In this document: positions 1-47,749 of the stretch, piece by piece
Layout of the letters: each line of letters starts with the position of its first letter
How positions within the stretch are numbered: the first letter of the stretch is position 1
NCBI GenBank assembly: GCA_964610335.1
Contig: CAZSVP010000003.1
Location: 77,531 to 141,530 of the forward strand
Direction: 5' to 3'
Length of the DNA: 64,000 nucleotides
Source: an uncultured Candidatus Saccharibacteria bacterium
GTDB lineage: Bacteria; Patescibacteriota; Saccharimonadia; CAILAD01; BJGX01
Notes under the pieces: model-generated
What the model was told of the DNA's origin: nothing
Databases searched by the model: none
What the model saw: only the letters and a program-made list of their open reading frames with translations
Position numbers and translations under genes: made by a program

Positions 1-91
1 TGAGACAGTTACACTGACCGTAGTACGCCAGGGCAAGACCATTGAGCTGCGAGCTACGCTAGGCGAAGCACCACAAAATATTCAGCAGTAA
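1..91 (+). CDS. 3' end of upstream CDS (last 29 codons, '...ETVTLTVVRQGKTIELRATLGEAPQNIQQ*'); resembles the C-terminal PDZ region of an HtrA/Ctp-type protease
   Basis: In-frame translation of frame 2 ends at TAA 89-91; the start lies outside the window. Confidence 0.3.
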   Translation, partial: ETVTLTVVRQGKTIELRATLGEAPQNIQQ

Positions 92-96
92 AATAC

Positions 97-126
97 TTGC
101 AATTGATTAATATTGTTGTGTATAGT
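97..126 (+). promoter_or_regulatory. sigma70-like promoter TTGCAA-N18-TATAGT upstream of the first paralog
   Basis: TTGCAA at 97-102, TATAGT at 121-126, in an AT-rich intergenic region. Confidence 0.4.
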
Positions 127-164: not shown

Positions 165-785
165 ATGCCAAACAAAACAAATACTTCACGCGCCCGAGTT
201 GGGAAACAATCCAACAAGGGTGGTTTTAAATTCCGCTGGTGGATGGCCGCTGGCCTCGTAATAGTCGTCGCGTTGGTAGGTGTGCTGGTGTTAAGGTATA
301 GTAAAGCCGCTGGAGGCACTGTTGCTCAGTTTGGTGGCTCCAATTGTACCCGGGTCAACTTAACCCATGTTTATCCCAAGGGTGCCAATGTCACAAACAA
401 TGTTTGTATGGGAACAGTGGATTTTGAAGAGTCGTTTACTTATGATACCAGCATTTCGACTGGCCGGCCTGCTACATACTGTGTTTGGGGAAGAATTTAC
501 ACTAAGAACCCAAGTGACATCATGGGCTTAAGTCTTACTGCATGGGGTACAAATCTTAGGGGACGTTCTGATAGTCAGGTAGTTGATCATACGGGTAACT
601 CTGGTGTAACAGGTTACGGAACTAATTTTACGGCCAATCCAGGAGGCAATATTAAGTTAGCATGTGTTTATGCTACTACTCCAGGTGTAAGTAGATTACA
701 ACTAAATGCCATAGCACTAGGTTCCAACCATTCCACACATTCGAGTGGGTTGGTTTTTATGGACCAAATCACAGTAGAATATTAA
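165..785 (+). CDS. Paralog 1 of a tandem family: Lys-rich N-terminus, conserved 'GGFKFRWWMA' plus TM anchor, Cys-containing extracytoplasmic C-domain
   Basis: ORF with AGGA RBS; N-terminal 45 aa and the 26-nt DNA motif 'ggtttyaaattycgctggtggatgg' are shared with the ORFs at 832 and 1297; shares a C-terminal 'ATYCxWGR' motif with paralog 3. Confidence 0.7.
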   Translation: MPNKTNTSRARVGKQSNKGGFKFRWWMAAGLVIVVALVGVLVLRYSKAAGGTVAQFGGSNCTRVNLTHVYPKGANVTNNVCMGTVDFEESFTYDTSISTGRPATYCVWGRIYTKNPSDIMGLSLTAWGTNLRGRSDSQVVDHTGNSGVTGYGTNFTANPGGNIKLACVYATTPGVSRLQLNAIALGSNHSTHSSGLVFMDQITVEY

Positions 786-831
786 AGTCATAATTGTTGA
801 AGAGTAGAACTAATTGTAAGGAGCAACATAG

Positions 832-1269
832 ATGCCAACCAAATCATCAAAATCTAGAGTCAGTAACACAACTAAGAAATCAGGTTTCAAATTCCGCTGG
901 TGGATGGGGGCGCTACTGGTAGCAGTAGTAGCGGTAATTGGAATTTATGTGATCTACAGTAGCCGAGCCAGCGGTAAGCTTTATGTGGGAACGGTCACAT
1001 ATGTCAATCGCGGCCAAGGTGCTCTGACTGTGAATATCAATGGCATGGGGCCAGTGAGCTTTGTTCAATATCCAGGTAATGTACTTAATGGTAGCGTGCC
1101 CGGCTGGAGTCAAAACTATCTGGGTTGGTGCGCGGCCGTCAATCGCGGCAGTGCTAAGAATAGTGGATCAAGCATTTATGATGTCCAGACTGGTGACAAA
1201 GTATTTGTAAGTGTGTTTGATGGTAAAGATGCCAACAGCTGTTATGGTGAAGGTGCCACACTCAACTAG
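832..1269 (+). CDS. Paralog 2 of the tandem family (shorter C-domain)
   Basis: AAGGAG RBS; N-terminus 'MPTKSSKSRVSNTTKKSGFKFRWWMG' plus TM. Confidence 0.7.
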   Translation: MPTKSSKSRVSNTTKKSGFKFRWWMGALLVAVVAVIGIYVIYSSRASGKLYVGTVTYVNRGQGALTVNINGMGPVSFVQYPGNVLNGSVPGWSQNYLGWCAAVNRGSAKNSGSSIYDVQTGDKVFVSVFDGKDANSCYGEGATLN

Positions 1270-1296
1270 AAATAACAATAAAACGAAAGAAATAAT

Positions 1297-1899
1297 ATGC
1301 CAACCAAAACTACCAAGTCACGCACTAGTAAAACATCTACTAAAAAGTCTGGTTTCAAATTTCGCTGGTGGATGGGCTTAGGTTTGGTCGTATTGGTCGC
1401 ACTCATCGGTGTGCTAGTAGTGCGATTTAGCCACGCTGGTGCAGTAGTACTGGCCAATCCAGCAGGTTGCCCAAGAGTCACTCTTACGCAGGCACATAGC
1501 AAGGGTGCAGCTACATCGGGTCTTGCTTGTCTGCAGGTAAATCGTATTAATTACGTTCAAGATGTCAATATCAGTCCGGGTGGTGTTGCGACCTATTGTG
1601 CCTGGGGCAGATATTATGGCGATGCCTATGTCAAACTCGGGGTAGCTGGTCCGGGTGTTCCTTATACCAATGGGCCACATAGTGGATGGGAGCATCATGC
1701 AGCATCAGATGCCAAAGTGACCGGCTACGGAGCTCAGTGGAATAGTACTCCAAATAACGCAGCGCCAGGTGGCGGTAGCCAATTACTGGCCTGTGTGCGA
1801 GCAAACTCTACTAATGTTAGGCAGATTGACTATGAAGTAAACACTGCTACTAATAGTTTAGTCCTGTGGGATTACATCACAGTTAGTGATATTCAGTAG
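1297..1899 (+). CDS. Paralog 3 of the tandem family
   Basis: N-terminus 'MPTKTTKSRTSKTSTKKSGFKFRWWMG' plus TM; C-terminal motifs 'TYCAWGR' and 'WDYITVSDIQ' parallel paralog 1. Confidence 0.7.
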   Translation: MPTKTTKSRTSKTSTKKSGFKFRWWMGLGLVVLVALIGVLVVRFSHAGAVVLANPAGCPRVTLTQAHSKGAATSGLACLQVNRINYVQDVNISPGGVATYCAWGRYYGDAYVKLGVAGPGVPYTNGPHSGWEHHAASDAKVTGYGAQWNSTPNNAAPGGGSQLLACVRANSTNVRQIDYEVNTATNSLVLWDYITVSDIQ

Positions 1900-1901
1900 C
1901 C

Positions 1902-2762
1902 CTAACCAGAAAAACCCAGTATCAAATATTCTTCTAAGATAGGTTTGAGACCAGCGGCTCTTGCCAGCTTAGTAAGCATCTCATGTTGCCATGGGTCGGA
2001 TTCGTGGTAGACACGGCTACCTGGCTTGATATGCGTGGGTAAATCTCGATAAAAGCGTCGATAAAGATCGAGCCCATCACCAGGGCCACCAAATAGGGCA
2101 ATGGATGGTTCTTTCTGAACTTCTGGTTTCATACGCGGTTTGTAATCTTCGCTGACGTAGGGGAGATTGGTTACTACTGTTTCGAATTTGTCATCTATGC
2201 CTTCCCAGATATCGGCTTCAATAAAGTTGATCTTAGGATCTTTACCTAGTATGTCCTCGGCATTAAGCCTAGCTACATCAATGGCTTCAGGTGATACTTC
2301 AGTGGCTGTAATCTGCAGGTCAGGCCGGTGCTTGGCAATAGCTATAGCAATCGCCCCAGATCCAGTACCAATGTCTATTAGATTAGACCTTTGTGGTGCT
2401 TCCTTGATAGCCTGTTCAGCAACTAGCTCAGTTTCTACCCGGGGTGAAAGCACGCGGTTATCGACATAAAACTCAATTCCGTAAAACTCCAGTTTGTTGG
2501 TAATGTAGCAGACTGGCTCCCGATCCAATCTGCGCTGCAAATACCCCTCAAACTGCTTACGCTGCGCTGTGGTGAGCTTTTGATCGTCATGGGCCAATAA
2601 GTACGACTTATCCACACCCAACACATCACAGAGCAATAATTTGGCATCGAGTTGCCAGCTAGGTATATCGGCAGCCTTGAGCCGCTTTTGAGCAACTTCC
2701 AAAGTCGTTTTAATAGGTGCATCAACTATTGGCTTCGAGGGCTTTTTGGATGTCGGCTTCAT
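1902..2762 (-). CDS. prmC: Release-factor glutamine N5-methyltransferase (PrmC/HemK)
   Basis: SAM-binding '[13 protein letters not shown]' and 'NLPYV' (NPPY-like) motifs; overlaps and sits downstream of prfA, which is the classic arrangement. Confidence 0.8.
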
Positions 2763-3783
2763 GAAGTTTCTCTATTAGTTCAGATATATCACCATCCATC
2801 ACCTTAGGTAGGTTGTGGGTGGTGTAGCCAATGCGGTGGTCGGTAATCCGATCTTGAGGGTAGTTGTAGGTGCGGATCTTCTCACTGCGATCACCTGTAC
2901 CGATCTGACTTCGGCGAGCATCGCCTAGCTTCTTGGCTTCCTCTTCTTGCTGCTGAGCAAGCAAGCGGCTACGTAGCACACTCATGGCTTTGATCTTGTT
3001 TTTGAGCTGTGATTTCTCATCTTGGCAAGTGACGACTATGCCTGTGGGTATATGAGTAAGCCGCACAGCGCTATCAGTGGTATTAACACTCTGGCCACCA
3101 TTGCCGGAGCTACGATACACGTCGACCCGAAGATCATTGGGGCTTATTTCAATATCGTTTTCTTCGGCCTCAGGTAGTACTGCAACCGTGGCCGTACTGG
3201 TGTGAATTCGGCCGGCACTCTCGGTGGTAGGCACACGTTGTACACGGTGTACGCCGCTCTCATACTTGAGCGTGCCGTAGGCTTGATCGCCCGACACCTC
3301 AAATATTACCTCTTTGTAGCCACCTTCGGGGTTGGGGCTTTCGCTCAGCATTTGAGCCTTCAAATCGTGACGCTCACAGAAACGTACGTACATGCGCAAC
3401 AGATCACCGGCAAAGATTGAGCTTTCATCACCGCCAGCACCGGCTCGGATCTCAATAATGGCATTTTTGCGGTCATTGGGATCGGTTGGAATTAGTGCCA
3501 CTTGGATCTGTGATTCTAGCTTGGCCAATCTGGCTTCCAACTCGGGCACTTCCGCTTCGGCGAGCTCGCGCATCTCAGGGTCATTGAGCAAGGATTGGGC
3601 TTCTTTGAGCTGCTGCTGGCTTGATTGATAACGTTCAAACAGTTCCAGTTTGGATTGAAGCTCATGAGCTTGAGCACTCAAGCCCCCAGCTCGACCTGAT
3701 TTAAAGATTTCAGGATCTCTTAACTCAGCATTGATAGATTCAAGCTGTTGAGAGGTTTCCTTGATTTTGTCTGATATATCCAT
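2722..3783 (-). CDS. prfA: Peptide chain release factor 1
   Basis: GGQ motif '[23 protein letters not shown]' and PxT-type 'RVPTTES'; start refined to ATG at 3783 ('MDISDKIKE', the ORF-track start was TTG). Confidence 0.9.
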
Positions 3784-3857
3784 AAGTGTAAGATTTAATA
3801 GTAGTATACAACACAAAACGAGCCAGGATATGGCTCGCTTAAGATAGGTCTAATTAG

Positions 3858-4211
3858 TTAAGATTCGGCTTTGTCAGCAGAGTCTTTGGCGGGTTTGTCG
3901 ACAGTATTGCCAGCTAGTTCGGCTTTCACAGCCTTAAGATCGGCCTTAACATCTGTAGTTTCAGCTTTGGAGCGCTCTTTCTTGGCTTTGGTGGGCTTAC
4001 CAACAGCCTTAGCGGCTTCTTGCTTGGCTCGGAAGCGATCTACACGACCAGCGGTATCCACTAGTTTTTGCTTACCGGTGTAGAAGGGATGACAATTACT
4101 ACAAATTTCTACCTCGATCTTATCTACTGTAGAGCGCGTATCAAAAGCGTTGCCGCAGCCATTACAGATGACCTTGGTATCTTTGAGTTCTGGGTGAATG
4201 CCGGTTTTCAT
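3858..4211 (-). CDS. rpmE: 50S ribosomal protein L31 with a Lys/Ala-rich C-terminal extension
   Basis: 'MKTGIHPE...CNGCGN...[13 protein letters not shown]' zinc-ribbon L31 signature; the extension makes it 117 aa versus the usual ~70. Confidence 0.8.
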
Positions 4212-4303
4212 AATCGCTCTATAGTAGCATATCAGATCAGAAATGTCAAAACTGAAACAGCTAGTCTTCCCACAGCTTGTTACTACTATAGATTGCGAAA
4301 AGA

Positions 4304-35978: not shown

Positions 35979-36323
35979 ATGAATGACACCCAGATAATCA
36001 TATTAAAAGAACTAGGTATAACTGATGCTAGTCCTGAGAAGCAAGCCGATATACTAGTCAAGATGGCTGAAGTTATTCAAAACCGCGTGGCAGTTAGGCT
36101 TACTGATATACTTACTGATCAGGAGCTGCAGCGCCTGGATGAACTGTCAGACAAAGACCCCGCTGAAATGTTTGCTTGGCTACAGCAAAATGTGCCTACC
36201 TATAATCTACTAGTTCAGGAAGAGACTATTCGGCTTCGCAACGAGCTAAGTCGAGGTTCTGTTGATATTAAGCAAGCTATATCTGAATATATTGATTCAA
36301 AGGCGCAAGCTCAGAGTACTTGA
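35979..36323 (+). CDS. Hypothetical small protein
   Basis: RBS 'ataggag'; 114 aa. Confidence 0.5.
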   Translation: MNDTQIIILKELGITDASPEKQADILVKMAEVIQNRVAVRLTDILTDQELQRLDELSDKDPAEMFAWLQQNVPTYNLLVQEETIRLRNELSRGSVDIKQAISEYIDSKAQAQST

Positions 36324-36348
36324 CAAAATAGTAATTATGTAGTATACT
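36320..36348 (+). promoter_or_regulatory. Strong sigma70-like promoter TTGACA-N17-TATACT reading into the GC-rich island
   Basis: TTGACA at 36320-36325 overlaps the stop of the upstream gene; TATACT at 36343-36348. Confidence 0.5.
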
Positions 36349-36580
36349 GGCCGCGATGATTTGCTATAGAGTAAATCAGTCCTTTTAAAACCGTTTCTGT
36401 AGCAATATGTTCTGGAGGGTCGCTTTTTGTGATACCTCTTTTTTGTTTGGTATTTGCCGATCTAAGGCAGAACCCTGCGTGCTATTGTGTCATCTGCCGC
36501 CCAGTTGATGCATGGCCGCAGGACTCTGCCTTAGTAAATCGTCTGCTCCCGCTCGGGAGCCAAAACCCGAGGAGGGAGCA

Positions 36581-37819
36581 ATGTCCATATTCGGTAATCG
36601 CGATGTGCCAGTGCCTGAAGTTGATGGCATTGGTATGCCTCTAGGTGACAGCAACCGTCACGCCCCACCACGGGACGAGGACGAGCTTGCGGCTCATCTG
36701 GCAGCAGCATTGCGAGCCAAGCAGACCAGCCGACCGTCAGCCCCGCCCGGGGATCCAAAGAACCCCGAGGAGGGAGACATGACGAACCTGGGAGAGATGC
36801 TCGACGACAAGAGTCGAGCCGCCCTCGATCAAGCACGTGCCAGTGCCGAGGCAGCCGTGGACTTCTCGCTCAGCTATGAAGAGTGGGTGCCATGGCTGAA
36901 CGAGCACGGCATTCCGGTACCGAGTTCGGGAGACCCCAACCCGGACGAAGACTGGAAGCAGGTCCGAGCCTTGGTGGGACTCTTCCCGAGCGCGACGCGC
37001 AAGGCGAAGGCTCACTACCGCGAAGTACAGGCTAGTATCGAGAAGCTTCACAGCTACCTTGAGCAGGCCTGGTTGTCAGCCTGCGAACTCTTGGCGCAAG
37101 CCGGAGCGCAGTACGCCAACACCCAACCACCAGAACCAACCAACCCGACAGCCCCTCCGGGGGGCACACCAACCCCTGAGGAGGGCGTCATGAAGACCAG
37201 CGAGCAGATCAAAGTCGAGGCAGCCGAGCTGATGAAGGACTGGGCCAAACCCGAGCTGACCAGCGGTCTCTACCGCTGGGATGCCACGGTCTGGGACACC
37301 AGCCGGATCGGCGATGGCAAGATCGGCTACATTGGCCTCCTCTCGGGGAAGCTGATGTTCAGCCAGATCACGTACCTCGAGGAGTGCGTCGAGCGCGGAC
37401 GGGACCATCCCTTCGACAGCAACGACGTGCTCGACCAGCTCCACGTGCTGGTCCGCGAGTGGCTGAGCCTCGACCCGGCCTTCGTGGCCTTGGACGAGGC
37501 AGATGCCAAGCGCGAGGTGAGTCGGGCGGTCTATCGCGTGTTGCGCGGTGAGATCGCCTTCGACCAGGTGGCTTACGTGCCACCGCTCACCCCTGAGGAC
37601 CGGGCGGCAGCTCTGGCGGCGTCCATCCAGGCCGCAACCAAGCCCGAGGCCAAGAAGGTCAAGGGTCGTCGGCGCGGACGCGACAAGGGTGACAAGCCCA
37701 AGTCCGCCTCGGCGTTGCCCTCACCTCCGGTCACCCCTGTGGTGGTCGGCAGCCCGACCCTCGGTCGGTACGGCATCGCCGCCGCCACCGCCCTCGGTGA
37801 GGTCTGGCAGTCGCGCTAG
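36581..37819 (+). CDS. Island gene A: Pro/Ala-rich hypothetical protein (~412 aa) with a basic C-terminus
   Basis: Very high GC; GGAGGGAG SD 5 nt upstream of the ATG at 36581; two further in-frame SD+ATG units inside. Confidence 0.6.
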   Translation: MSIFGNRDVPVPEVDGIGMPLGDSNRHAPPRDEDELAAHLAAALRAKQTSRPSAPPGDPKNPEEGDMTNLGEMLDDKSRAALDQARASAEAAVDFSLSYEEWVPWLNEHGIPVPSSGDPNPDEDWKQVRALVGLFPSATRKAKAHYREVQASIEKLHSYLEQAWLSACELLAQAGAQYANTQPPEPTNPTAPPGGTPTPEEGVMKTSEQIKVEAAELMKDWAKPELTSGLYRWDATVWDTSRIGDGKIGYIGLLSGKLMFSQITYLEECVERGRDHPFDSNDVLDQLHVLVREWLSLDPAFVALDEADAKREVSRAVYRVLRGEIAFDQVAYVPPLTPEDRAAALAASIQAATKPEAKKVKGRRRGRDKGDKPKSASALPSPPVTPVVVGSPTLGRYGIAAATALGEVWQSR

Positions 37820-37867
37820 TTCGTGGCTGTCAGTGGTTGGTCTCGTTTGCTACAGGAGCGCGAGAGT

Positions 37868-37895
37868 GGTGTGGGGGTCTTCGGACCCCCACACC
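37868..37895 (+). terminator. Perfect 12-bp GC hairpin with a UUCG loop after gene A (no U-tract)
   Basis: 'ggtgtgggggtc-ttcg-gacccccacacc'. Confidence 0.45.
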
Positions 37896-37988
37896 TCAAC
37901 CACACTACTAGGATTAGTATTCCGATTGTGTCGAGTAGACAATTCAACATGCTTGAGACAGTCGGAAACCTGCTCCTGTAGCAACTTC

Positions 37989-38021
37989 AAACCCGTACCT
38001 CGGTGCAAACCGGGGGAATAC
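37989..38021 (+). repeat. Copy 1 of a 33-nt conserved leader element 'aaacccgtacctcggtgcaaaccgggggaatac' (plus upstream 'gctcctgta') preceding gene B
   Basis: Identical to 38519-38551. Confidence 0.8.
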
Positions 38022-38034
38022 CAAGGAGGCCCAC

Positions 38035-38361
38035 ATGGGACTCGCAGATGACCTGGCCGCACGCAAAGCAGCGAAGCAGGCTCCGCCGCCGCCCGCCAAG
38101 ACCACCATCGATGAGGTGGACAAGGCGATCGATGTGGCGCTCGCGCCCATCGTCGACGACTTCACCAAGGTCGTCACGGAGGCCCTCGCGCTCTTCGACA
38201 AGGAGACCGCGAGCGATGACTTCCTGGAGCGACTTCTGGTCGCGTTGGGAGACACCGATCTGCCCACCGGTGACGGCGTGCTCGAGGCCAAGGTGGCCGC
38301 TGCGGTCAACCGCGGCGTCGCCAACGCCATCGCCGCCGTGGTCGCCAACGCGACCAAGTGA
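38035..38361 (+). CDS. Island gene B: small acidic helical protein (108 aa)
   Basis: AGGAGG RBS; ATG at 38035. Confidence 0.6.
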   Translation: MGLADDLAARKAAKQAPPPPAKTTIDEVDKAIDVALAPIVDDFTKVVTEALALFDKETASDDFLERLLVALGDTDLPTGDGVLEAKVAAAVNRGVANAIAAVVANATK

Positions 38362-38373
38362 GCAGTTGCTCGG

Positions 38374-38404
38374 CCACCGGCGTACTCTCGTAGTACGTCG
38401 GTGG
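38374..38404 (+). terminator. 13-bp stem hairpin (one G.U) with a CUCG loop after gene B
   Basis: 'ccaccggcgtact-ctcg-agtacgtcggtgg'. Confidence 0.4.
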
Positions 38405-38518
38405 CATGAGCCACCACACATTCACATTAGATGTATAGAATCGTCTTGCTGATATTTATCTTCATGGCAATGGAGCATTACTTCGGTAGTGATCAGCAAC
38501 CGCGCTCCTGTACAAACC

Positions 38519-38551
38519 AAACCCGTACCTCGGTGCAAACCGGGGGAATAC
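38519..38551 (+). repeat. Copy 2 of the 33-nt leader element preceding gene C
   Basis: Identical to 37989-38021. Confidence 0.8.
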
Positions 38552-38566
38552 TAGTTGGAGACTGTT

Positions 38567-39067
38567 ATGGCAGCACCAATGGCCGCGGCCGCAGCTCAAG
38601 GGTTGTTGGCTGCATTTGGCGGCGCTAACCCGCCGCCGCCCGGGGGCAATCCACCCGGCGGTGGAATGCAACCACGAAATGCTGGCATCGTCGCTGGCAT
38701 CGTCGCTTCGGTACTCGCGATCCTGACCTACATCGGGTTGGGACTGTGGGACGCTGTCGGCTGGGGCAAGGGTCTGATCGGTTTCGTGCTCGTTGGTGTT
38801 CTCGCCTTCGGGGTCACGTTTCTCATCTGCATCCGTCCACCTCAGCCGCGACAGCCCGCCGCTCCGGCACCAGCACCAGCGGCCACCAACCACACCTTCA
38901 TCGCCATCATGGTGGGGTGTGGTACGACGATCGTTGCTTCGATCGTTGCGGTGGTGGCTGTCAGCCGGTTCAGCGATGACGGTGCCTTCAGGATGTTGGC
39001 CTTCCTGGCCCCATACCTGATAGCCGGAGTCATCGCCACTCGGGCACTGTTCAAGCGCGGCAGCTAG
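38567..39067 (+). CDS. Island gene C: 4-TM membrane protein with a Pro/Gly-rich N-terminus
   Basis: ATG at 38567 (the ORF-track start was TTG); four hydrophobic helices. Confidence 0.55.
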   Translation: MAAPMAAAAAQGLLAAFGGANPPPPGGNPPGGGMQPRNAGIVAGIVASVLAILTYIGLGLWDAVGWGKGLIGFVLVGVLAFGVTFLICIRPPQPRQPAAPAPAPAATNHTFIAIMVGCGTTIVASIVAVVAVSRFSDDGAFRMLAFLAPYLIAGVIATRALFKRGS

Positions 39068-39100
39068 GCCGACCATGAAGGGGAACCTCCATGGTCGGCC
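39067..39100 (+). terminator. 11-bp perfect hairpin after gene C
   Basis: 'ggccgaccatg-aaggggaacctc-catggtcggcc'. Confidence 0.4.
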
Positions 39101-39298
39101 GCGAGGCCCTGGGCTGAGTTTCTCGATTTGCGTCGAGAGACCACCCAGGTGCCCTCGCACCTCAACCTACATATTAGGCTTATGCTTTATAAGAGACCGT
39201 AACAAGTGTAATCTTAATATGTGGGCTGAATCTTGGAGAGAAAACCAAGCTTAAGCACACAACCGCACCCATACATCAACCATAGAGGAGGTGGTCCT

Positions 39299-40726
39299 AT
39301 GACACGTAGTCACAGGATCTTCGCCGCCTGTGCGATTGTCTTCACCATGCTCATTGCATTGGTGGGGGCGGTTGCCATCGGCACATCGAGTGGTCAGACC
39401 GCCTCAAGCGGCAGCACGACCACGACATCACTCGAGCCAGTCCCTGGCTCGGTCACCACCACGCCAGCGCCAACCGACAACGTGCCGGCGGCCACGCCCG
39501 AGGAGCGCAAACCCACGGTCACGGCTGAGCAGTGTCACGATCGGATCGGTGCCTCGGAAGAGAAGGACCGCGAGCTCCAGGAGCAAGGCATCACCGCCGA
39601 ACAGTGTGGTCTGCTGCTGGTGGAGCTCTGTCAGAAGGTCGACTTCGATGGCGTTCGCGCCCTCGGAGAGTCCGACCCATCAGGCAAGTGCGCCGCCGTG
39701 ATGGCCGGTGTGAGTACGACGCAGAACACCGCGCCGACCAGCACCGCGCCTGGAGCAACAGCTCCATCTGGCACAACGCCGGGCTCAACGGCACCGCCAA
39801 CCACGGCTACCCCAACGCCTCGTCAACCCGATGTGGTGGATCTCATGATCTATCTGCAGAAGGTCAGCATGGCCGAAGGGCACGTCCAAGGAGTCGGTGT
39901 CACCTGTGAGGCCAATTGCGTTCTGCGCGACGGTATCACGGCTGATACCCCCGAGGGCATGTTCGCCCAGCTCATGAGCAAGGGTCTCGTCTCGCCAGTC
40001 TTTCTCGATGATGCAGCCCGCACCATCGCGTTCCAGACCGGGCAGGAGTACACCGACACTCGAGAGGTGGGCGACGCCGCCAAGGCCGGCAGTGACACAC
40101 TGATCGTGCTGAACTGGATCAAGGACCCGAGCACCCCAACCATGTTGGAGCGCGGGATCTTGCCAGCCGGCACGACGCTGTACAACACCGTCGTACAAGA
40201 CGGCAAGGTGGTGCAGTTCAGCTACACCACCAACCGGGATCGGGTCTACCTCAAGATCTGGAAGGGCGACACCTTCCTGATGTGGTTCGACAGCTGCGGG
40301 AACAGGACGAGCGATCGTCCGACGCCTGGAGTGCCCGAGACCCCAACGCCGCCACCGCACGACGACGAGCCACCGACCACGACGACACCACCACCGACCG
40401 GTGGGCCGACCCCGACCACGACACCACCAGCGTGTCCGCCAGGCACGATCTGGAACCCGGTCACGAAGAAGTGTGGGAAGTTGGATACCCATCCAGTGGG
40501 ACCCAACAGCCCTGTTCCTACCCAGGTGCAGGGCCCAGGGCCAACCCATCCGGCAGGGCCACCCAACACGGCGATCGAGCATCCGAACCCCACGACTGGT
40601 TGCAATCCAACCTGTCCGGGGGCAACGACGCCCACCACAAGGGCGGTGACACCCACGGTGCCGCCGATCGTCACCAGCACCACGTACCAGCCGCCTCCGA
40701 CGCCCACCACCATGGGCGGGCCGTAG
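39299..40726 (+). CDS. Island gene D: secreted or anchored Thr/Pro-rich protein (signal-anchor 'MTRSHRIFAACAIVFTMLIALVGAVAIG', PT-rich C-terminus)
   Basis: GGAGGTGG RBS; ATG at 39299. Confidence 0.6.
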   Translation: MTRSHRIFAACAIVFTMLIALVGAVAIGTSSGQTASSGSTTTTSLEPVPGSVTTTPAPTDNVPAATPEERKPTVTAEQCHDRIGASEEKDRELQEQGITAEQCGLLLVELCQKVDFDGVRALGESDPSGKCAAVMAGVSTTQNTAPTSTAPGATAPSGTTPGSTAPPTTATPTPRQPDVVDLMIYLQKVSMAEGHVQGVGVTCEANCVLRDGITADTPEGMFAQLMSKGLVSPVFLDDAARTIAFQTGQEYTDTREVGDAAKAGSDTLIVLNWIKDPSTPTMLERGILPAGTTLYNTVVQDGKVVQFSYTTNRDRVYLKIWKGDTFLMWFDSCGNRTSDRPTPGVPETPTPPPHDDEPPTTTTPPPTGGPTPTTTPPACPPGTIWNPVTKKCGKLDTHPVGPNSPVPTQVQGPGPTHPAGPPNTAIEHPNPTTGCNPTCPGATTPTTRAVTPTVPPIVTSTTYQPPPTPTTMGGP

Positions 40727-40811
40727 TCGGCACTGACAACTCTGGCCTCGAGTGAGGACCGTCGCCAGAGTGAGAAGTCCCAGTCCTCCATGATGTATGG
40801 GTGCAATTGCT

Positions 40812-40839
40812 GCCCTGGGGAGCCAAAACTCCCCAGGGC
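40812..40839 (+). terminator. 11-bp GC hairpin with a CCAAAA loop after gene D, near the island's right boundary
   Basis: 'gccctggggag-ccaaaa-ctccccagggc'. Confidence 0.4.
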
Positions 40840-40890
40840 TAGCACCCACACCCTAAGCTGAAGACAGTGCAGCTACTAGCTACCTTGTCT

Positions 40891-40908
40891 TCAGGATAGG
40901 TATCCTGA
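40891..40908. promoter_or_regulatory. Palindrome 'tcaggata-gg-tatcctga' (8-bp arms), a putative regulator binding site
   Basis: Located 21 bp upstream of the -35 box of the LPXTG-gene promoter. Confidence 0.35.
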
Positions 40909-40928
40909 AAAGAAAACCATAACAAATA

Positions 40929-40957
40929 TTGACACCAATACTAAATTATGATATTAT
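40929..40957 (+). promoter_or_regulatory. Near-consensus promoter TTGACA-N17-TATTAT for the LPXTG gene
   Basis: Motifs at 40929-40934 and 40952-40957. Confidence 0.55.
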
Positions 40958-41055
40958 AACCGCTAATTGAGAGGCGGAGCTCATTTACAGCCAAATACGA
41001 TGCATTTACTAATTGAGACTTGTCAAACATTAAACCTGACAAGGAAGGAAACTAT

Positions 41056-42351
41056 ATGAAAAAGAAATCAACTTTTCGTAAAGTTCTCGGCATTGTATTG
41101 GCAACAGTAGCTTTAGTGGTAATGCCACTGGCTGCAGCTGCTGATTGGAGCCCTGAACGACCGATCAAAGAATATTATCCAGGAGTACCTGGTTTTGATC
41201 ATGTGACATTTAACTCGTTTGTTAAAACCGCCAATTATGGCGACGAACGACTTTTCTATACTGCCAAGGATGCGGCTAATACCAATTCTGGCGGTTTCGA
41301 TGACAGCATGCAGGTGCATGCTGGTCAAGAGATACTTATGCGCACCTATATACATAACGGTGCCGACTCAAGTCTCAATGCAGGTGGCACGGGCATAGCT
41401 CGTAACACCAAGGTAAAGGTAATGCTGCCAAGTGGCTATGACAAAGCCTTGCGCTCTGTTAGCTACATAAGTGCTAGCAATGCACAGCCAGGTACTGTAG
41501 CGGCTTCTGTTGATCTAAAGGGTGACAACCCATTTGGTCTGCAGTATGTTGCAGGATCTGCTATGGCTTATAGTAACCAAGCTCCCAATGGCTTCAAACT
41601 CAACGATAGTATCGTGGGTGATGGCGCCTTGGTCGGTAATGTTGCTCCAGATGGTAATGTACCAGGCTGCTTCGAGTATGGTGTGGTTGTAACCATGAAA
41701 GTGAAAGTTACAGCTGCCAACTTGAGCATTCAAAAGCAAGTTGGTATCCCAGGCTCTGGTCAATGGAAAGAACAAGTACAAGTCGGCAAAGGTGATACTG
41801 TAAGCTGGGGAATCCACTACGAAAACACCGGTGACCGCGTCATGCACAAAGAAGTAGTAACTGACAAACTACCCCCTTACCACGAAGTGGTACCAGGTAG
41901 TGTCAAGCTCTACGTGCCCAATGCTCCAGAAGGCGCTCAACTCAATGACACTTCGTTGTTTAACGAAGGTGTAATGGTTGGTGACTACGCTCCAGGAGCT
42001 GGTGGTAACATACGTTACCAAACTCGGGTCAAACAAGATGTACCTGCAAACTTGCTAATGCGTAATGTGGCTTGTATCGGATCAGATGAGACTCAGACTG
42101 ACATCTGTGATGATGCTACTACTATTACCCCTCCAACACCTCCACCTACACCGGAGTGTTTGCCAGGCATACCAGTAGGTGATAGCCGCTGTAACCCTGT
42201 AACGCCTCCCCCTACAGGTGGTCCGTTGCCAGCAACTGGTGTGGAAAGTGGCTTGGCTGCAAGTCTAGGCATGACTGCCCTTACAACCGGTGGTTATATG
42301 CTACGACGTAGCCGTAAGGACCTCAAAAAGGCCCTCACCAAAGTAAAATAA
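41056..42351 (+). CDS. LPXTG-anchored cell-surface protein (sortase substrate)
   Basis: Signal peptide 'MKKKSTFRKVLGIVLATVALVVMPLAAAADW'; C-terminal 'LPATG' plus hydrophobic stretch plus 'RRSRKD' sorting signal. Confidence 0.8.
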   Translation: MKKKSTFRKVLGIVLATVALVVMPLAAAADWSPERPIKEYYPGVPGFDHVTFNSFVKTANYGDERLFYTAKDAANTNSGGFDDSMQVHAGQEILMRTYIHNGADSSLNAGGTGIARNTKVKVMLPSGYDKALRSVSYISASNAQPGTVAASVDLKGDNPFGLQYVAGSAMAYSNQAPNGFKLNDSIVGDGALVGNVAPDGNVPGCFEYGVVVTMKVKVTAANLSIQKQVGIPGSGQWKEQVQVGKGDTVSWGIHYENTGDRVMHKEVVTDKLPPYHEVVPGSVKLYVPNAPEGAQLNDTSLFNEGVMVGDYAPGAGGNIRYQTRVKQDVPANLLMRNVACIGSDETQTDICDDATTITPPTPPPTPECLPGIPVGDSRCNPVTPPPTGGPLPATGVESGLAASLGMTALTTGGYMLRRSRKDLKKALTKVK

Positions 42352-42371
42352 ACAGACCAGACTAATTCAAG

Positions 42372-42408
42372 AAGACCCAAATCTCACCTCGAGAGGCGGG
42401 TCTTTTTG
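42372..42408 (+). terminator. Intrinsic terminator (agaccc...gggtct plus TTTTT)
   Basis: Hairpin followed by a T-run directly after the LPXTG gene. Confidence 0.55.
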
Positions 42409-42429
42409 ATTTATTGGTATAATAAAGTC

Positions 42430-43533
42430 ATGAAAGATATTGTGAAACAACTGACTGGGTTATTAAACCAGGTTGATAATGCCATAGATGCACTTAGTCT
42501 CGAAGCTGATGAGGCAAAGTTGGCTGGTATGGAAGAACAAATGATAGCAAGTGATTTCTGGCAAGACACCATGCAAGCCGAGCAGGTTAGCCGCGAGGCC
42601 GCTGAGCTTAAACGCTACATTGGGTCCTGGCGCGATTTACGCGAGGAGCTTGCTACGACCCTCGAATTGGCCGAATTGTCGAGTGATTCACAGTCAAGTG
42701 AGTTCAGTGATTTACTAGCTGATTATAATAGGCGCGTTGGGGAGCAAATGCTGGCACTCAAGCTTGGTGGAGAACACGACAAAGCAGCTGCAATTATCCA
42801 ACTAAGTGCTGGGGTTGGTGGTACAGATGCTGCTGATTGGGCTCAGATGCTCGAAACAATGTACATCAAGTATGCCAACACACACGGATTTAGCGTGGAA
42901 GTACTGGAAGAATCGCCCAGTGAAGAGGCTGGCATCAAGAGTGCAACCTTGCGAGTAAGTGGCCCATTTGCTTTTGGCAAACTAAAGGGTGAGTCAGGAG
43001 TACATCGGCTGGTGCGTTTGAGCCCATTCAATTCCGACAATCTTCGTCAAACTAGTTTTGCCTTGGTAGAGGTGTTGCCAGAAATAGTGGCAACCGAGTC
43101 GGTTTTGGATCCCAAAGATCTGCGAGTCGATGTCTACCGCAGTTCTGGCCACGGTGGCCAAAGTGTGAATACTACTGATAGTGCAGTTCGGTTGACACAT
43201 ATTCCAACTGGTATGACTGTGGCAGTCCAAAACGAGCGTTCTCAGCTCAAGAACAAACAAATGGCCATGTCGATATTGGCAGCTAAACTCAATAAACTTG
43301 CAGAAGAACAACACTTGGCAAATGTATCAGACCTCAAAACTAGCAGTAAGTCAGCCGATTGGGGAGCGCAGATACGCAACTATGTGTTGCACCCATATCA
43401 AAAAGTCAAAGATGTACGCACTGGCTACGAAACTAGTGATACCACAGGGGTCTTGGCTGGTGAACTAGAACCATTTATAGAGGCTTACCTTAATAAACAA
43501 GTAGGAAATCCCGAAAGCAAAAGGCAAAAATAA
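42430..43533 (+). CDS. prfB: Peptide chain release factor 2 (no programmed frameshift)
   Basis: 'SPF' tripeptide in 'RLSPFNS' and the GGQ motif '[23 protein letters not shown]'; ATG at 42430, with TATAAT ending 6 nt upstream. Confidence 0.85.
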   Translation: MKDIVKQLTGLLNQVDNAIDALSLEADEAKLAGMEEQMIASDFWQDTMQAEQVSREAAELKRYIGSWRDLREELATTLELAELSSDSQSSEFSDLLADYNRRVGEQMLALKLGGEHDKAAAIIQLSAGVGGTDAADWAQMLETMYIKYANTHGFSVEVLEESPSEEAGIKSATLRVSGPFAFGKLKGESGVHRLVRLSPFNSDNLRQTSFALVEVLPEIVATESVLDPKDLRVDVYRSSGHGGQSVNTTDSAVRLTHIPTGMTVAVQNERSQLKNKQMAMSILAAKLNKLAEEQHLANVSDLKTSSKSADWGAQIRNYVLHPYQKVKDVRTGYETSDTTGVLAGELEPFIEAYLNKQVGNPESKRQK

Positions 43534-45381: not shown

Positions 45382-46464
45382 GTGAATCAATTAAAATCAA
45401 AAGTCCTCATATCCGCTTTGATATTAGCGGTATTTTTGGCTTTCTTACCTCAAGTAACACAAGCCGATCAATATGATGACCAGATAAACGCACTCAAGAA
45501 AAAAGTACAAGAGACCCAGGCTGCAGCAGACGCTAAAAATGCCGAAGCCGATACTCTTAAGGGTAAGATTTCTGGTATTGATAGCCAGATAGCAGCCGCT
45601 CAACAGGCATTAAATCTTACTAATGCTCAGGTGGCACAGACTCAAACTCAGATAACCAAAGCCAATCAAGATCTCGAGCGACAGCAAACTATACTCAAGG
45701 ACAATCTCAAGATGATTTATCGTGAGGGCAAGGTTAGCCCGCTAGAGGTGATTGCTAGTTCCAAGAATCTTAGTGACTTTGTTGCTAAACAGCAATATCT
45801 AGGTGCAATAAAGAAGAAAGTTGATGATAACTTACGCAAGATTGAGCAACTCAAAAAAGAGTTAGCGACCAAGAAGGATCAGCTTGCAGCTCAGTCAAAT
45901 CAGCAAAAAGAAATAGTAAATCAGATTGCCACTCAACGCGCCGAACAAGCTAGCTTGCTCGCGCGTACCCAGGGCGAAGAGTCCAACTACCGCAAAATTG
46001 CTGCTGAAGACAATAGTCGAATTGGCGAACTTCGTCGTGCTCAAGCTGCTGCCATTGCAGCTGTGTCGAGCAATGTTCACTACGGTGGCACTGGTGGTTA
46101 TCCGTGGGCAAATGCTCCGTTTCCCAATAGTATTCCTGACTCATGGGGCATGTATCAACGCCAATGTGTGAGTTATGCTGCATGGAAGGTAGCTACTGTT
46201 CATGGCAATATGCCTTACTGGGGTGGTCGAGGTAATGCCAACCAGTGGCCAAGCAATGCTCGTGCTGCGGGCATTCCAGTCGATGGCAATCCTAGGGTCG
46301 GTGATATCGCTATATTGATGGCTGGTCCGTATGGTCACGCTGCTTATGTCGAGGCAGTCTTAGGGGGTGGTAAAGTGAAAGTTAGTCAGTACAATGCCAA
46401 CTGGGATGGAGCTTACTCAGTTGCTGACATCGGTACTGCTGGTGTACAATTTATTCACTTTTAG
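45382..46464 (+). CDS. Secreted coiled-coil plus CHAP-domain peptidoglycan hydrolase (PcsB-like)
   Basis: GTG start after an AAGGAGG RBS; signal peptide; long coiled coil; C-terminal Cys ('QCVSYAAW') and His ('GHAAYVE') of a CHAP fold. Confidence 0.7.
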   Translation: MNQLKSKVLISALILAVFLAFLPQVTQADQYDDQINALKKKVQETQAAADAKNAEADTLKGKISGIDSQIAAAQQALNLTNAQVAQTQTQITKANQDLERQQTILKDNLKMIYREGKVSPLEVIASSKNLSDFVAKQQYLGAIKKKVDDNLRKIEQLKKELATKKDQLAAQSNQQKEIVNQIATQRAEQASLLARTQGEESNYRKIAAEDNSRIGELRRAQAAAIAAVSSNVHYGGTGGYPWANAPFPNSIPDSWGMYQRQCVSYAAWKVATVHGNMPYWGGRGNANQWPSNARAAGIPVDGNPRVGDIAILMAGPYGHAAYVEAVLGGGKVKVSQYNANWDGAYSVADIGTAGVQFIHF

Positions 46465-46486: not shown

Positions 46487-47749
46487 TTGGAACCACCAAA
46501 CAGAAACACCATAAATCAGGCTGCCCAAACTCAGCCGTCAAAACCTCCTAGTCAGAAAGCAAAGGGTGGTTTTTGGCGTTTTGCACTTGTAGGTGGGCTG
46601 TTTTTTGTTCTAGGTGTAGCGGTGAGTTACCTTGGTGTCCGTGCCGGTGTGCTTTCTCCGGCCGCAAGTAATAAGATCAATCTAGACTCATTTTGGCAAG
46701 CCAACAGTATTCTGCAACAAAAATTTGATGGTGACATAGATCCAACCAAACAGTCAGAAGGTGCTACGGCTGGTATGGTGGCTAGTTTAGGCGACCCTTA
46801 CACAGTATTTTTGGACAAGAAAGCCAATCAAGAGCTTGCCAACGATCTCAAGGGTGAACTGAGCGGCGTGGGGATTGAGATAGGCATTAAAAACAACAAG
46901 CTGGTAGTAATAGCTCCAATCGATGGTGGCCCTGCTCAGAAAGCCGGTATCAAGGCTGGTGACTACATAGTGGGTATCGATGGCAAAGATGCGGGTGGCT
47001 TCACATTAGATGAAGCTGTTAAAACAATCCGTGGTGAAGCTGGTACGCAAGTAAAACTGACTGTGATACGCGGCACAAATAGCCCAAAAGAGATTACGAT
47101 CACTAGAGAGAAGATTCAGATCCCATCTGTCACAAGTGAGATTAAAGATGGCAATATTGGCTATATTAAAATACGACGATTTGGTGATGATACTGTGGCT
47201 GCAGTTAGTCAGGCAGTCAGCAGCCTAAAATCCCAAGGTGTCAAGGCAGTAGTAATAGACGTACGTGATAATCCTGGCGGATATTTAGATGGTGCTATTA
47301 AGATTAGTTCACAATTCATGAGTCAGGGTGTAGTCGTGCAAGAAAAGTCACGCCACACGGCCGACAAGAGTTTTTCAGCTATAAGTGGAGGCATGATGAC
47401 CGACATCCCAGTAATAATGCTCATCAATGGTGGTAGTGCCAGTGCTTCCGAGATTATGGCTGGTGCGCTGCACGACAACAATCGAGCAACCCTAGTAGGA
47501 GAAAAGACCTTCGGCAAGGGCAGCGTACAGGAAGTAGTTTGCCTCAATGGGATAGGCTTGAGCCTTGGTAACGATGAATGCAAAGGTGATGCGCTCAAGG
47601 TCACCGTAGCTCACTGGTACACTCCAAATGGTATCAACATATCCAAAGAAGGCATCAAGCCAGATGTCGAGGTTAAGCCTGCTGCTGAAAACGATACTAG
47701 TGACCCACAACTCCAAAAAGCACTAGAGGTCGCCAAATCTAAATTGTAG
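46487..47749 (+). CDS. C-terminal processing (S41, tail-specific) protease with a PDZ domain
   Basis: PDZ 'GDYIVGIDGKD', 'VRDNPGG' and 'NGGSASASEI' motifs; TTG/GTG start is uncertain. Confidence 0.75.
   Translation: MEPPNRNTINQAAQTQPSKPPSQKAKGGFWRFALVGGLFFVLGVAVSYLGVRAGVLSPAASNKINLDSFWQANSILQQKFDGDIDPTKQSEGATAGMVASLGDPYTVFLDKKANQELANDLKGELSGVGIEIGIKNNKLVVIAPIDGGPAQKAGIKAGDYIVGIDGKDAGGFTLDEAVKTIRGEAGTQVKLTVIRGTNSPKEITITREKIQIPSVTSEIKDGNIGYIKIRRFGDDTVAAVSQAVSSLKSQGVKAVVIDVRDNPGGYLDGAIKISSQFMSQGVVVQEKSRHTADKSFSAISGGMMTDIPVIMLINGGSASASEIMAGALHDNNRATLVGEKTFGKGSVQEVVCLNGIGLSLGNDECKGDALKVTVAHWYTPNGINISKEGIKPDVEVKPAAENDTSDPQLQKALEVAKSKL

Follow-up and report, generated by a model that had tools for sequence, protein, structure and literature searches.

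Three genes with a common N-terminal module

The DNA analysed here, which we call the window, is a 64 kilobase (kb) stretch of contig CAZSVP010000003.1 from an uncultured Candidatus Saccharibacteria bacterium. Close to its start lie three consecutive open reading frames on the same strand (ORF1, ORF2 and ORF3, Table 1), whose proteins begin with a common N-terminal sequence that we call the module. Each protein opens with MP(N/T)K, continues through a stretch rich in Lys, Ser, Thr and Arg, and then carries K(S/G)GFKFRWWM(G/A) followed by a hydrophobic helix. This arrangement had been recognised in a preliminary description of the sequence and is present in all three ORFs.

The three ORFs are real and separate genes. 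Each has its own start, its own module and its own stop. An identical ORF3 protein, flanked by the same neighbours and with the same gene lengths, is called in five independent assemblies, and the lengths of orthologues agree (P0001, 200 residues; P0005, 204 residues; P0010, 144 residues). These observations rule out that the ORFs are pieces of one frameshifted gene, a possibility that the preliminary description had raised against itself. The gaps between ORF1 and ORF2 and between ORF2 and ORF3 are 46 and 27 nucleotides (nt), a spacing compatible with a single transcription unit. Only 2 nt separate the end of ORF3 from the convergent genes prmC-prfA-rpmE.

Scans of the three proteins against Pfam and NCBIfam gave no significant family. 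NCBIfam returned nothing at E<=1, and the sole Pfam rows, Cpn10 and DUF4212 for ORF2, have E values of about 0.08, below the cut-off, and were taken as chance. One further protein, P0004 (262 residues, from an ENA contig of 1025 nt), is 97% identical to the N-terminal half of ORF3 (48% of ORF3 covered) before its sequence becomes unrelated, and is more likely a chimera from assembly or a frameshift than a real variant.

Table 1. Features of the module locus, in window positions unless a locus is named, with predicted cleavage sites
Feature	Position	Strand	Remarks
ORF1	165..785	+	206 residues; exported, module-bearing; paralogue of ORF3
ORF1 N-terminal module	165..308	+	residues 1-48: basic n-region, FKFRWWM, 19-residue hydrophobic helix, RYSKA; predicted cleavage after A48 (S46-K-A48, then A49)
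ORF1 predicted mature domain	309..782	+	158 residues; 4-Cys beta-sandwich family, common with ORF3
ORF2	832..1269	+	145 residues; exported, module-bearing; mature domain unrelated to ORF1/ORF3
ORF2 N-terminal module	832..969	+	residues 1-46; variant c-region YSSRA; predicted cleavage after A46 (S44-R-A46, then S47)
ORF2 predicted mature domain	970..1266	+	99 residues; 2 conserved Cys; beta-rich, low-confidence model
ORF3	1297..1899	+	200 residues; exported, module-bearing
ORF3 N-terminal module	1297..1437	+	residues 1-47; predicted cleavage after A47 (S45-H-A47, then G48)
ORF3 predicted mature domain	1438..1896	+	153 residues; confident all-beta jelly-roll/sandwich model; 4 conserved Cys
25-nt DNA block, copy 1	222..246	+	encodes G-F-K-F-R-W-W-M-(A/G)
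25-nt DNA block, copy 2	883..907	+	
25-nt DNA block, copy 3	1351..1375	+	
Upstream HtrA-type (trypsin and PDZ) serine protease gene, 3' end	1..90	+	
Promoter-like site TTGCAA-18-TATAGT, upstream of ORF1	97..126	+	consensus match alone
Lnt equivalog genes	L014:5300-6892; L010:773-2341; L012:4462-6066; L016:9914-11536; L017:11369-12952; L018:1503-3152; L024:6452-8101		

Anatomy of the module

A sequence logo was made from 151 module proteins, aligned without gaps and anchored on the WW pair with W as position 0. The alignment consists of one block free of insertions and deletions, F[KQ]F[RK]WWM[AG]xxLVxxVAxxG[IV]xV[LV]R[FY]SxA, after which comes S, G or A in 140 of the 151 proteins. G+14 and A+23 are invariant, and the other motif residues are nearly so: the first F is found in 135 proteins, F at -2 in 145, the two W in 150 and 146, M in 140, R+19 in 132 and S+21 in 147. 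Within two residues past A+23, information content has dropped to about 0.4 bits, from about 4 bits before. The module comes to about 46-48 residues in total, is rigid and occupies the extreme N-terminus.

The n-region, the part that precedes the block, typically counts 23 residues with a net charge of +8 (medians; charge range +4 to +15), and just 9 acidic residues occur among 3655. The hydrophobic h-region runs uninterrupted for about 19 residues from W0 to L+18, and its mean Kyte-Doolittle hydropathy over 15 residues is 3.05-3.31 in ORF1-3. Within it the conserved positions (A+3, L/V at +6/7, V/A at +10/11, the invariant G+14 and V/L at +17/18) are spaced three to four residues apart and so lie on one helical face. 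The basic n-region, the hydrophobic core and the small neutral residues at -3 and -1 (S+21 and A+23) are the features of a long monoderm-type Sec signal peptide, and S-x-A is a site of the signal peptidase I (SPase I) type. A second hydrophobic segment is found in just one of the 151 proteins.

The N-terminus of an S41 C-terminal protease encoded elsewhere in the window (46487..47749, forward strand), KAKGGFWRFALVGG, loosely recalls the module in its basic residues, its GF, W, R and F, and its hydrophobic helix. It gives no match to the module profile.

Cargo of the module

Pfam domains are recognised in only about 12 of 147 module proteins, and every one of these domains is extracytoplasmic. 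They are PG_binding_1 (five), Peptidase_M23 (two), CHAP (two), VanY, DUF4185, Big_7 and GDSL lipase. Further loci add subtilase S8 and VanY cargo, and one module cluster is named murein DD-endopeptidase MepM/NlpD by IMG. The remaining cargo proteins are small (median mature length 110 residues) and rich in Gly, Asn, Ser, Thr and Tyr. The number of Cys residues is even and non-zero in 136 of the 151 mature parts, and Cys makes up 2.3% of residues compared with 0.6% in the other proteins of the window. An LPXTG-like string near the C-terminus is present in two of the 151 proteins.

The even Cys counts, the basic n-region and the single hydrophobic segment together point to an N-in/C-out topology with a disulfide-bonded extracellular domain. 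The module is very probably an export signal with extracellular cargo, and the surface exposure proposed in the preliminary description agrees with mature parts that are almost certainly extracytoplasmic. The housekeeping exports of the window, including a PcsB-like CHAP protein (45382..46464), the S41 protease and HtrA, have no module and carry ordinary signals or anchors. Only some of the exported proteins thus carry the module.

The mature domain of ORF3 was modelled with AlphaFold2 from 11 family members. The model is all-beta, with twelve strands, a predicted local distance difference test score (pLDDT) of 93.1 and a predicted template modelling score (pTM) of 0.88. Its first strand starts at mature residue 2, so that no stalk would be left for a membrane-anchored form. 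A Foldseek search of the PDB gave nothing at E<=1e-3, and a viral library gave nothing significant. The best PDB matches (E 4e-3 to 5e-2, TM scores 0.40-0.47) are domain III of Cry toxins and the carbohydrate-binding modules (CBMs) CBM6, CBM36, CBM4 and CBM61.

This confident model is a beta-jelly-roll sandwich, and the mature domains of ORF1 and ORF3 may tentatively be called CBM-like. CBM6, CBM36, CBM4 and domain III of the Bacillus thuringiensis Cry toxins share with them the beta-jelly-roll and a length of about 120-150 residues. These are extracellular binding domains, and ORF1 and ORF3 are probable surface or glycan binders. The likeness is one of fold only, at 9-15% identity, and the ORF1/ORF3 family differs in having four conserved Cys and in being a stand-alone domain. 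Prediction of C-domain structures, proposed in the preliminary description, gave this model for ORF3 and a poor one for ORF2.

Distribution and genomic context

A profile of the first 50 residues was searched exhaustively against 1.84 billion representative proteins. A word-indexed search with the same 50-residue profile had returned only proteins of fewer than 90 residues and missed known full-length members, and the exhaustive search was used in its place. At E<=1e-3 the profile matched 237 clusters (50% identity), of which 121 also passed E<=1e-10. Nearly all matches cover residues 1-50, in proteins of 60 to 954 residues. The homology search with the N-terminus that the preliminary description had called for finds the module heading at least 237 protein clusters, far beyond the three genes of the window.

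Genomes were scanned for F[KQ]F[RK]WWM, with one genome per species. The scan gave 18 confirmed motif loci in eight assemblies, with several loci per genome. All eight assemblies are labelled Candidatus Saccharibacteria, or 'bacterium' with a content near-identical to a Saccharibacteria metagenome-assembled genome. A scan of metagenomes added only four further loci, one of which repeats a gene pair of Lnt (apolipoprotein N-acyltransferase) and a module protein. The loci contain about 47 full-motif genes, often in same-strand arrays: about 11-12 genes in locus L016 and 5-8 in loci L010, L012, L014 and L017. The module therefore appears to be found only in one Saccharibacteria lineage, and the earlier proposal of a lineage-specific N-terminal export or sorting signal is upheld.

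The gene order SPase I, 288-residue membrane protein, HtrA, module genes and prmC-prfA-rpmE is found in loci L001 and L006. L006 is syntenic with the window, and its housekeeping neighbours are 76-91% identical at the protein level, which identifies the genome of the window as one of Saccharibacteria. Its slot between HtrA and prmC (3225-4281) holds two module genes, to which ORF3 and ORF2 are 87% and 65% identical as orthologues. The orthologue of ORF1 is absent from this closest relative. The corresponding slot of L022 (2041-3702) holds three module genes that have only the module in common with the window genes, and the flanking genes are 57-72% identical. In these three species the slot holds three, two and three module genes, respectively, and is a fixed insertion point with turnover of cargo genes.

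Some neighbours of the module genes deserve mention in their own right. The 288-residue polytopic membrane protein is encoded just upstream of the window (L001:6689-7555; orthologue L006:1104-1964), between the SPase I and HtrA genes, and has no Pfam or NCBIfam family. The SPase I encoded beside the locus has a low-complexity N-terminal extension of about 100 residues. Two neighbours of module clusters, of 663 and 938 residues, were considered as secretion partners and rejected, as they are the housekeeping proteins UvrB and UvrA.

Relationships between the genes and selection on the module

The mature domains of ORF1 and ORF3 are homologous (BLASTP, 30% identity, E 2e-14) and belong to a family of proteins of about 200 residues with four conserved Cys. 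Among the three ORFs only these two contain the motifs ATYCxWGR, (T/R/K/Q)G(Y/F)G and LACV. The mature domain of ORF2 has no detectable similarity to those of ORF1 and ORF3 (E 1.1), and iterated searches keep the two families apart. The ORF2 family is separate and small, consisting of P0010, P0116 and one gene in L006. ORF1 and ORF3 are true paralogues, and ORF2 has just the module in common with them. The description of three paralogues with shared C-terminal motifs (ATYC(A/V)WGR, TGYG and LACV) is accurate for ORF1 and ORF3 and does not extend to ORF2.

The motif is encoded by a conserved DNA block of 25 nt, GGTTTYAAATTYCGCTGGTGGATGG, which has exactly three copies in the window, and none is expected in 100 shuffles. 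The preliminary description had found the three copies; the positions it gave (221, 883 and 1349) are 1-2 nt off in the first and third. Over the 29-codon core of the module, ORF1-3 differ at a proportion of synonymous sites (pS) of 0.68-0.85, which is saturated, compared with a proportion of nonsynonymous sites (pN) of 0.21-0.31. Related loci show the same pattern, both internally and in comparison with each other. The codons used at the motif match the genome background, and the block spans three residues that have a single codon (W, W and M).

It follows from the saturation of pS and the background codons that the block simply reflects the invariance of the peptide F-K-F-R-W-W-M, with no recent duplication or gene conversion behind it. 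Purifying selection acts on the module as protein and not on its DNA. A role of the block itself, as an mRNA signal or as a site of recombination, was considered and rejected on the same grounds. No inverted repeats, tandem repeats or simple-sequence tracts were found at the locus.

A proposed specialised signal peptide

Our best reading is that the module is a new motif-bearing specialised Sec signal peptide, analogous to YSIRK/GXXS and outside any named family. We hold with moderate confidence that it is a specialised, probably cleaved, signal peptide of the Sec type. The very basic, acid-free n-region would stay in the cytoplasm, F-[KQ]-F-[RK]-W-W-M would sit at the inner membrane interface, and the protein would insert N-in/C-out via SecYEG. 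The c-region R-[FY]-S-x-A would then offer its small residues at -3 and -1 to SPase I, with the cut most likely after the invariant Ala. The mature domain would be released outside the membrane and form its disulfides there. An additional factor may recognise the module and set the route, place or timing of export.

Cleavage is favoured because conservation ends exactly at S-x-A and a folded domain starts right after it, and cutting by SPase I seems reasonably probable on this sequence evidence. The motif at the n/h boundary, the helix face and the Arg at -5 are conserved beyond generic Sec needs, and the cargo is a subset of exports, which suggests an extra recognising factor. By analogy, the chances are about even that the motif singles out some of the secreted proteins for export by a given route, at a given site or at a given time. 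The cargo, which includes cell-wall hydrolases, a lipase and subtilases, would be in keeping with a role towards the host bacterium.

Several observations weigh against this interpretation. The helix, at about 19 residues, is long enough for a stable membrane anchor, and SPase I substrates do not usually have an Arg at -5, where it is near-invariant here. A SPase I gene lies beside module genes only in the lineage of the window (L001 and L006) and not at the other module clusters. A dedicated partner of the module is so far hypothetical. The CBM-like assignment of the cargo comes with weak Foldseek scores and no Pfam CBM match. The model of the ORF2 mature domain is poor (pLDDT 64), and a PDB search with it gave no meaningful match.

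Alternative readings

The main rival reading holds that the module stays uncleaved as a type II signal-anchor, that its conserved helix face packs with itself or with a membrane partner, and that the domains are held on the cell surface, much as the term 'membrane-anchored' in the preliminary description implied. The long and strongly hydrophobic helix, its conserved face with an invariant Gly, and the Arg conserved straight after it (132 of 151) would all suit an anchor, as would the scarcity of any other means of retention, LPXTG-like strings being so rare. An anchor has no obvious need, however, of an invariant Ala and a near-invariant Ser at -1 and -3, which stand at a fixed distance from the helix as SPase I requires, and conservation collapses precisely at S-x-A. 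The fold of ORF3 moreover begins two residues further on, with no stalk to cross the cell wall. We therefore favour predicted cleavage and consider the anchor unlikely, if a serious contender.

A bolder proposal, to which we give only a small chance, makes the module the address tag of an unrecognised dedicated sorting or processing pathway of Saccharibacteria. A membrane partner (a specialised SPase, the co-clustered Lnt or machinery at the host-contact site) would then read the helix face, and if the partner were Lnt the new N-terminus could be lipidated. Such a tag would define the effector repertoire that these epibionts deploy against host bacteria. The module is rigid, free of insertions and deletions, and conserved throughout, like the sorting signals that dedicated enzymes read. 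In seven related Saccharibacteria loci, an Lnt equivalog (TIGR00546, score 148.7 bits, cut-off 132.9) lies between module genes, within the largest clusters of them, and the gene after it invariably encodes a module protein of about 260-300 residues (the RFSxAS-xPPEE family). These loci were, however, fetched for their module genes, so the sampling is conditioned on the module. The constant neighbour is one particular module protein, and the two genes may form a pair that has nothing to do with the module itself. There is no Lnt at the locus in the window, and the clusters also hold a GDSL lipase, so that a lipid-scavenging operon is an equally good reading. With no Cys at +1, module proteins are not classical Lnt substrates. 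As an alternative to the Sec signal peptide, a tag for an undescribed system, for example cleavage followed by lipidation by Lnt or delivery at the host contact, is improbable. The tandem same-strand genes with their identical 25-nt block, and the differences in gene content between species, could also suggest a recently duplicated or recombining cassette with 5' ends homogenised by gene conversion, serving antigenic or phase variation. This reading, close to the duplication and antigenic variation first proposed for the locus, is largely refuted: the synonymous sites of the module are saturated, the block is made up of three single-codon residues and otherwise background codons, ORF2 shares the signal only, repeats and tracts are lacking, and ORF3 is as conserved across species (87%) as its neighbours (76-91%).

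Comparison with known signals

The last alternative, a divergent form of a known signal, is the least credible of those considered, and we give it hardly any weight. The preliminary description had named a known lipoprotein or Tat motif as grounds for dropping its claim; the module matches neither, nor does it match prepilin, YSIRK or KxYKxGKxW signals, and no signal model of Pfam or NCBIfam is found at E<=1. For a lipoprotein a Cys at +1 would be expected, and this occurs in one of 151 proteins. The G-F at the start of the motif recalls the G/F junction of class III (prepilin) signals, but G precedes the first F in just 67 of 151 proteins and the fifth residue is W (150 of 151), never Glu.

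The twin-arginine (Tat) signal resembles the module in its long n-region, its motif at the n/h boundary, a basic c-region residue before an A-x-A-type site and an overall length of about 45-50 residues. The module, however, has [KQ]-F-[RK] at -3/-2/-1 and thus no RR, as F occupies -2 in 145 of 151 proteins. Its h-region, with a Kyte-Doolittle mean of about 3.2, is far more hydrophobic than is typical of Tat, and there is no match to TIGR01409 or PF10518.

The YSIRK/GXXS signal (TIGR01168) of Staphylococcus and Streptococcus offers the closest analogy. Both are long (about 40-50 residues) Sec-type signals of monoderm-type bacteria, each combines a motif at the n/h boundary with another conserved feature in the h-region, and both are found on a subset of exported surface proteins. 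A passage of PMC5962339 describes YSIRK/GXXS signals as required for localised septal secretion of surface proteins in S. aureus. The sequence of the module (FKFRWWM...G...RFSxA) is wholly different and gives no TIGR01168 match. The module is conserved over the whole of its h- and c-region without insertions or deletions, and its cargo is without the C-terminal LPXTG with which YSIRK is usually paired. It is found in Saccharibacteria and not in Firmicutes; localised secretion is a feature of YSIRK and could apply to the module by analogy only.

The KxYKxGKxW signal (TIGR03715) of Firmicutes glycoproteins and adhesins likewise has a basic and aromatic motif that ends in Trp before the hydrophobic core, and it too is extended and restricted in lineage. 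Its motif and spacing differ, its model does not match, and its cargo consists of giant serine-rich repeat adhesins, whereas the module precedes mostly small Cys-containing proteins. In the literature library that was searched we found no paper with the motif strings and nothing relevant on signal peptides or the secretome of Saccharibacteria, or on Saccharibacteria and Lnt.

According to PMC7427843 and PMC11623550, Saccharibacteria, like other Patescibacteria, live on host bacteria to which they attach. The majority of their surface and secreted proteins lack annotation. A coherent exported set can be retrieved with one small profile, mostly of small proteins that are probably disulfide-bonded, together with peptidoglycan hydrolases, a lipase and subtilases. 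The module thereby provides a list of candidate host-interaction factors and a testable sorting signal. It would also indicate that specialised motif-bearing signal peptides are not confined to the Firmicutes, from which they are mainly known, but occur in the candidate phyla radiation too, and if a dedicated partner exists it would be part of a new protein-sorting system.

Other features of the window

The stretch of the window from 36000 to 42400 has a G+C content of 0.53-0.61, compared with about 0.45 elsewhere. It contains five ORFs (36512..37819 +, 37944..38417 -, 38462..39160 -, 39233..40726 + and 41020..42351 +), two of which have ordinary signal peptides and none of which has a Pfam match. 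The stretch may be a horizontally acquired island.

The window also encodes two class-I release factors with PCRF and RF-1 domains. The first gene (2722..3816, reverse strand) overlaps prmC by 41 nt, and the second lies at 42406..43533 on the forward strand. The two genes are ordinary and are consistent with the standard code (table 11) used for the ORFs of the window.

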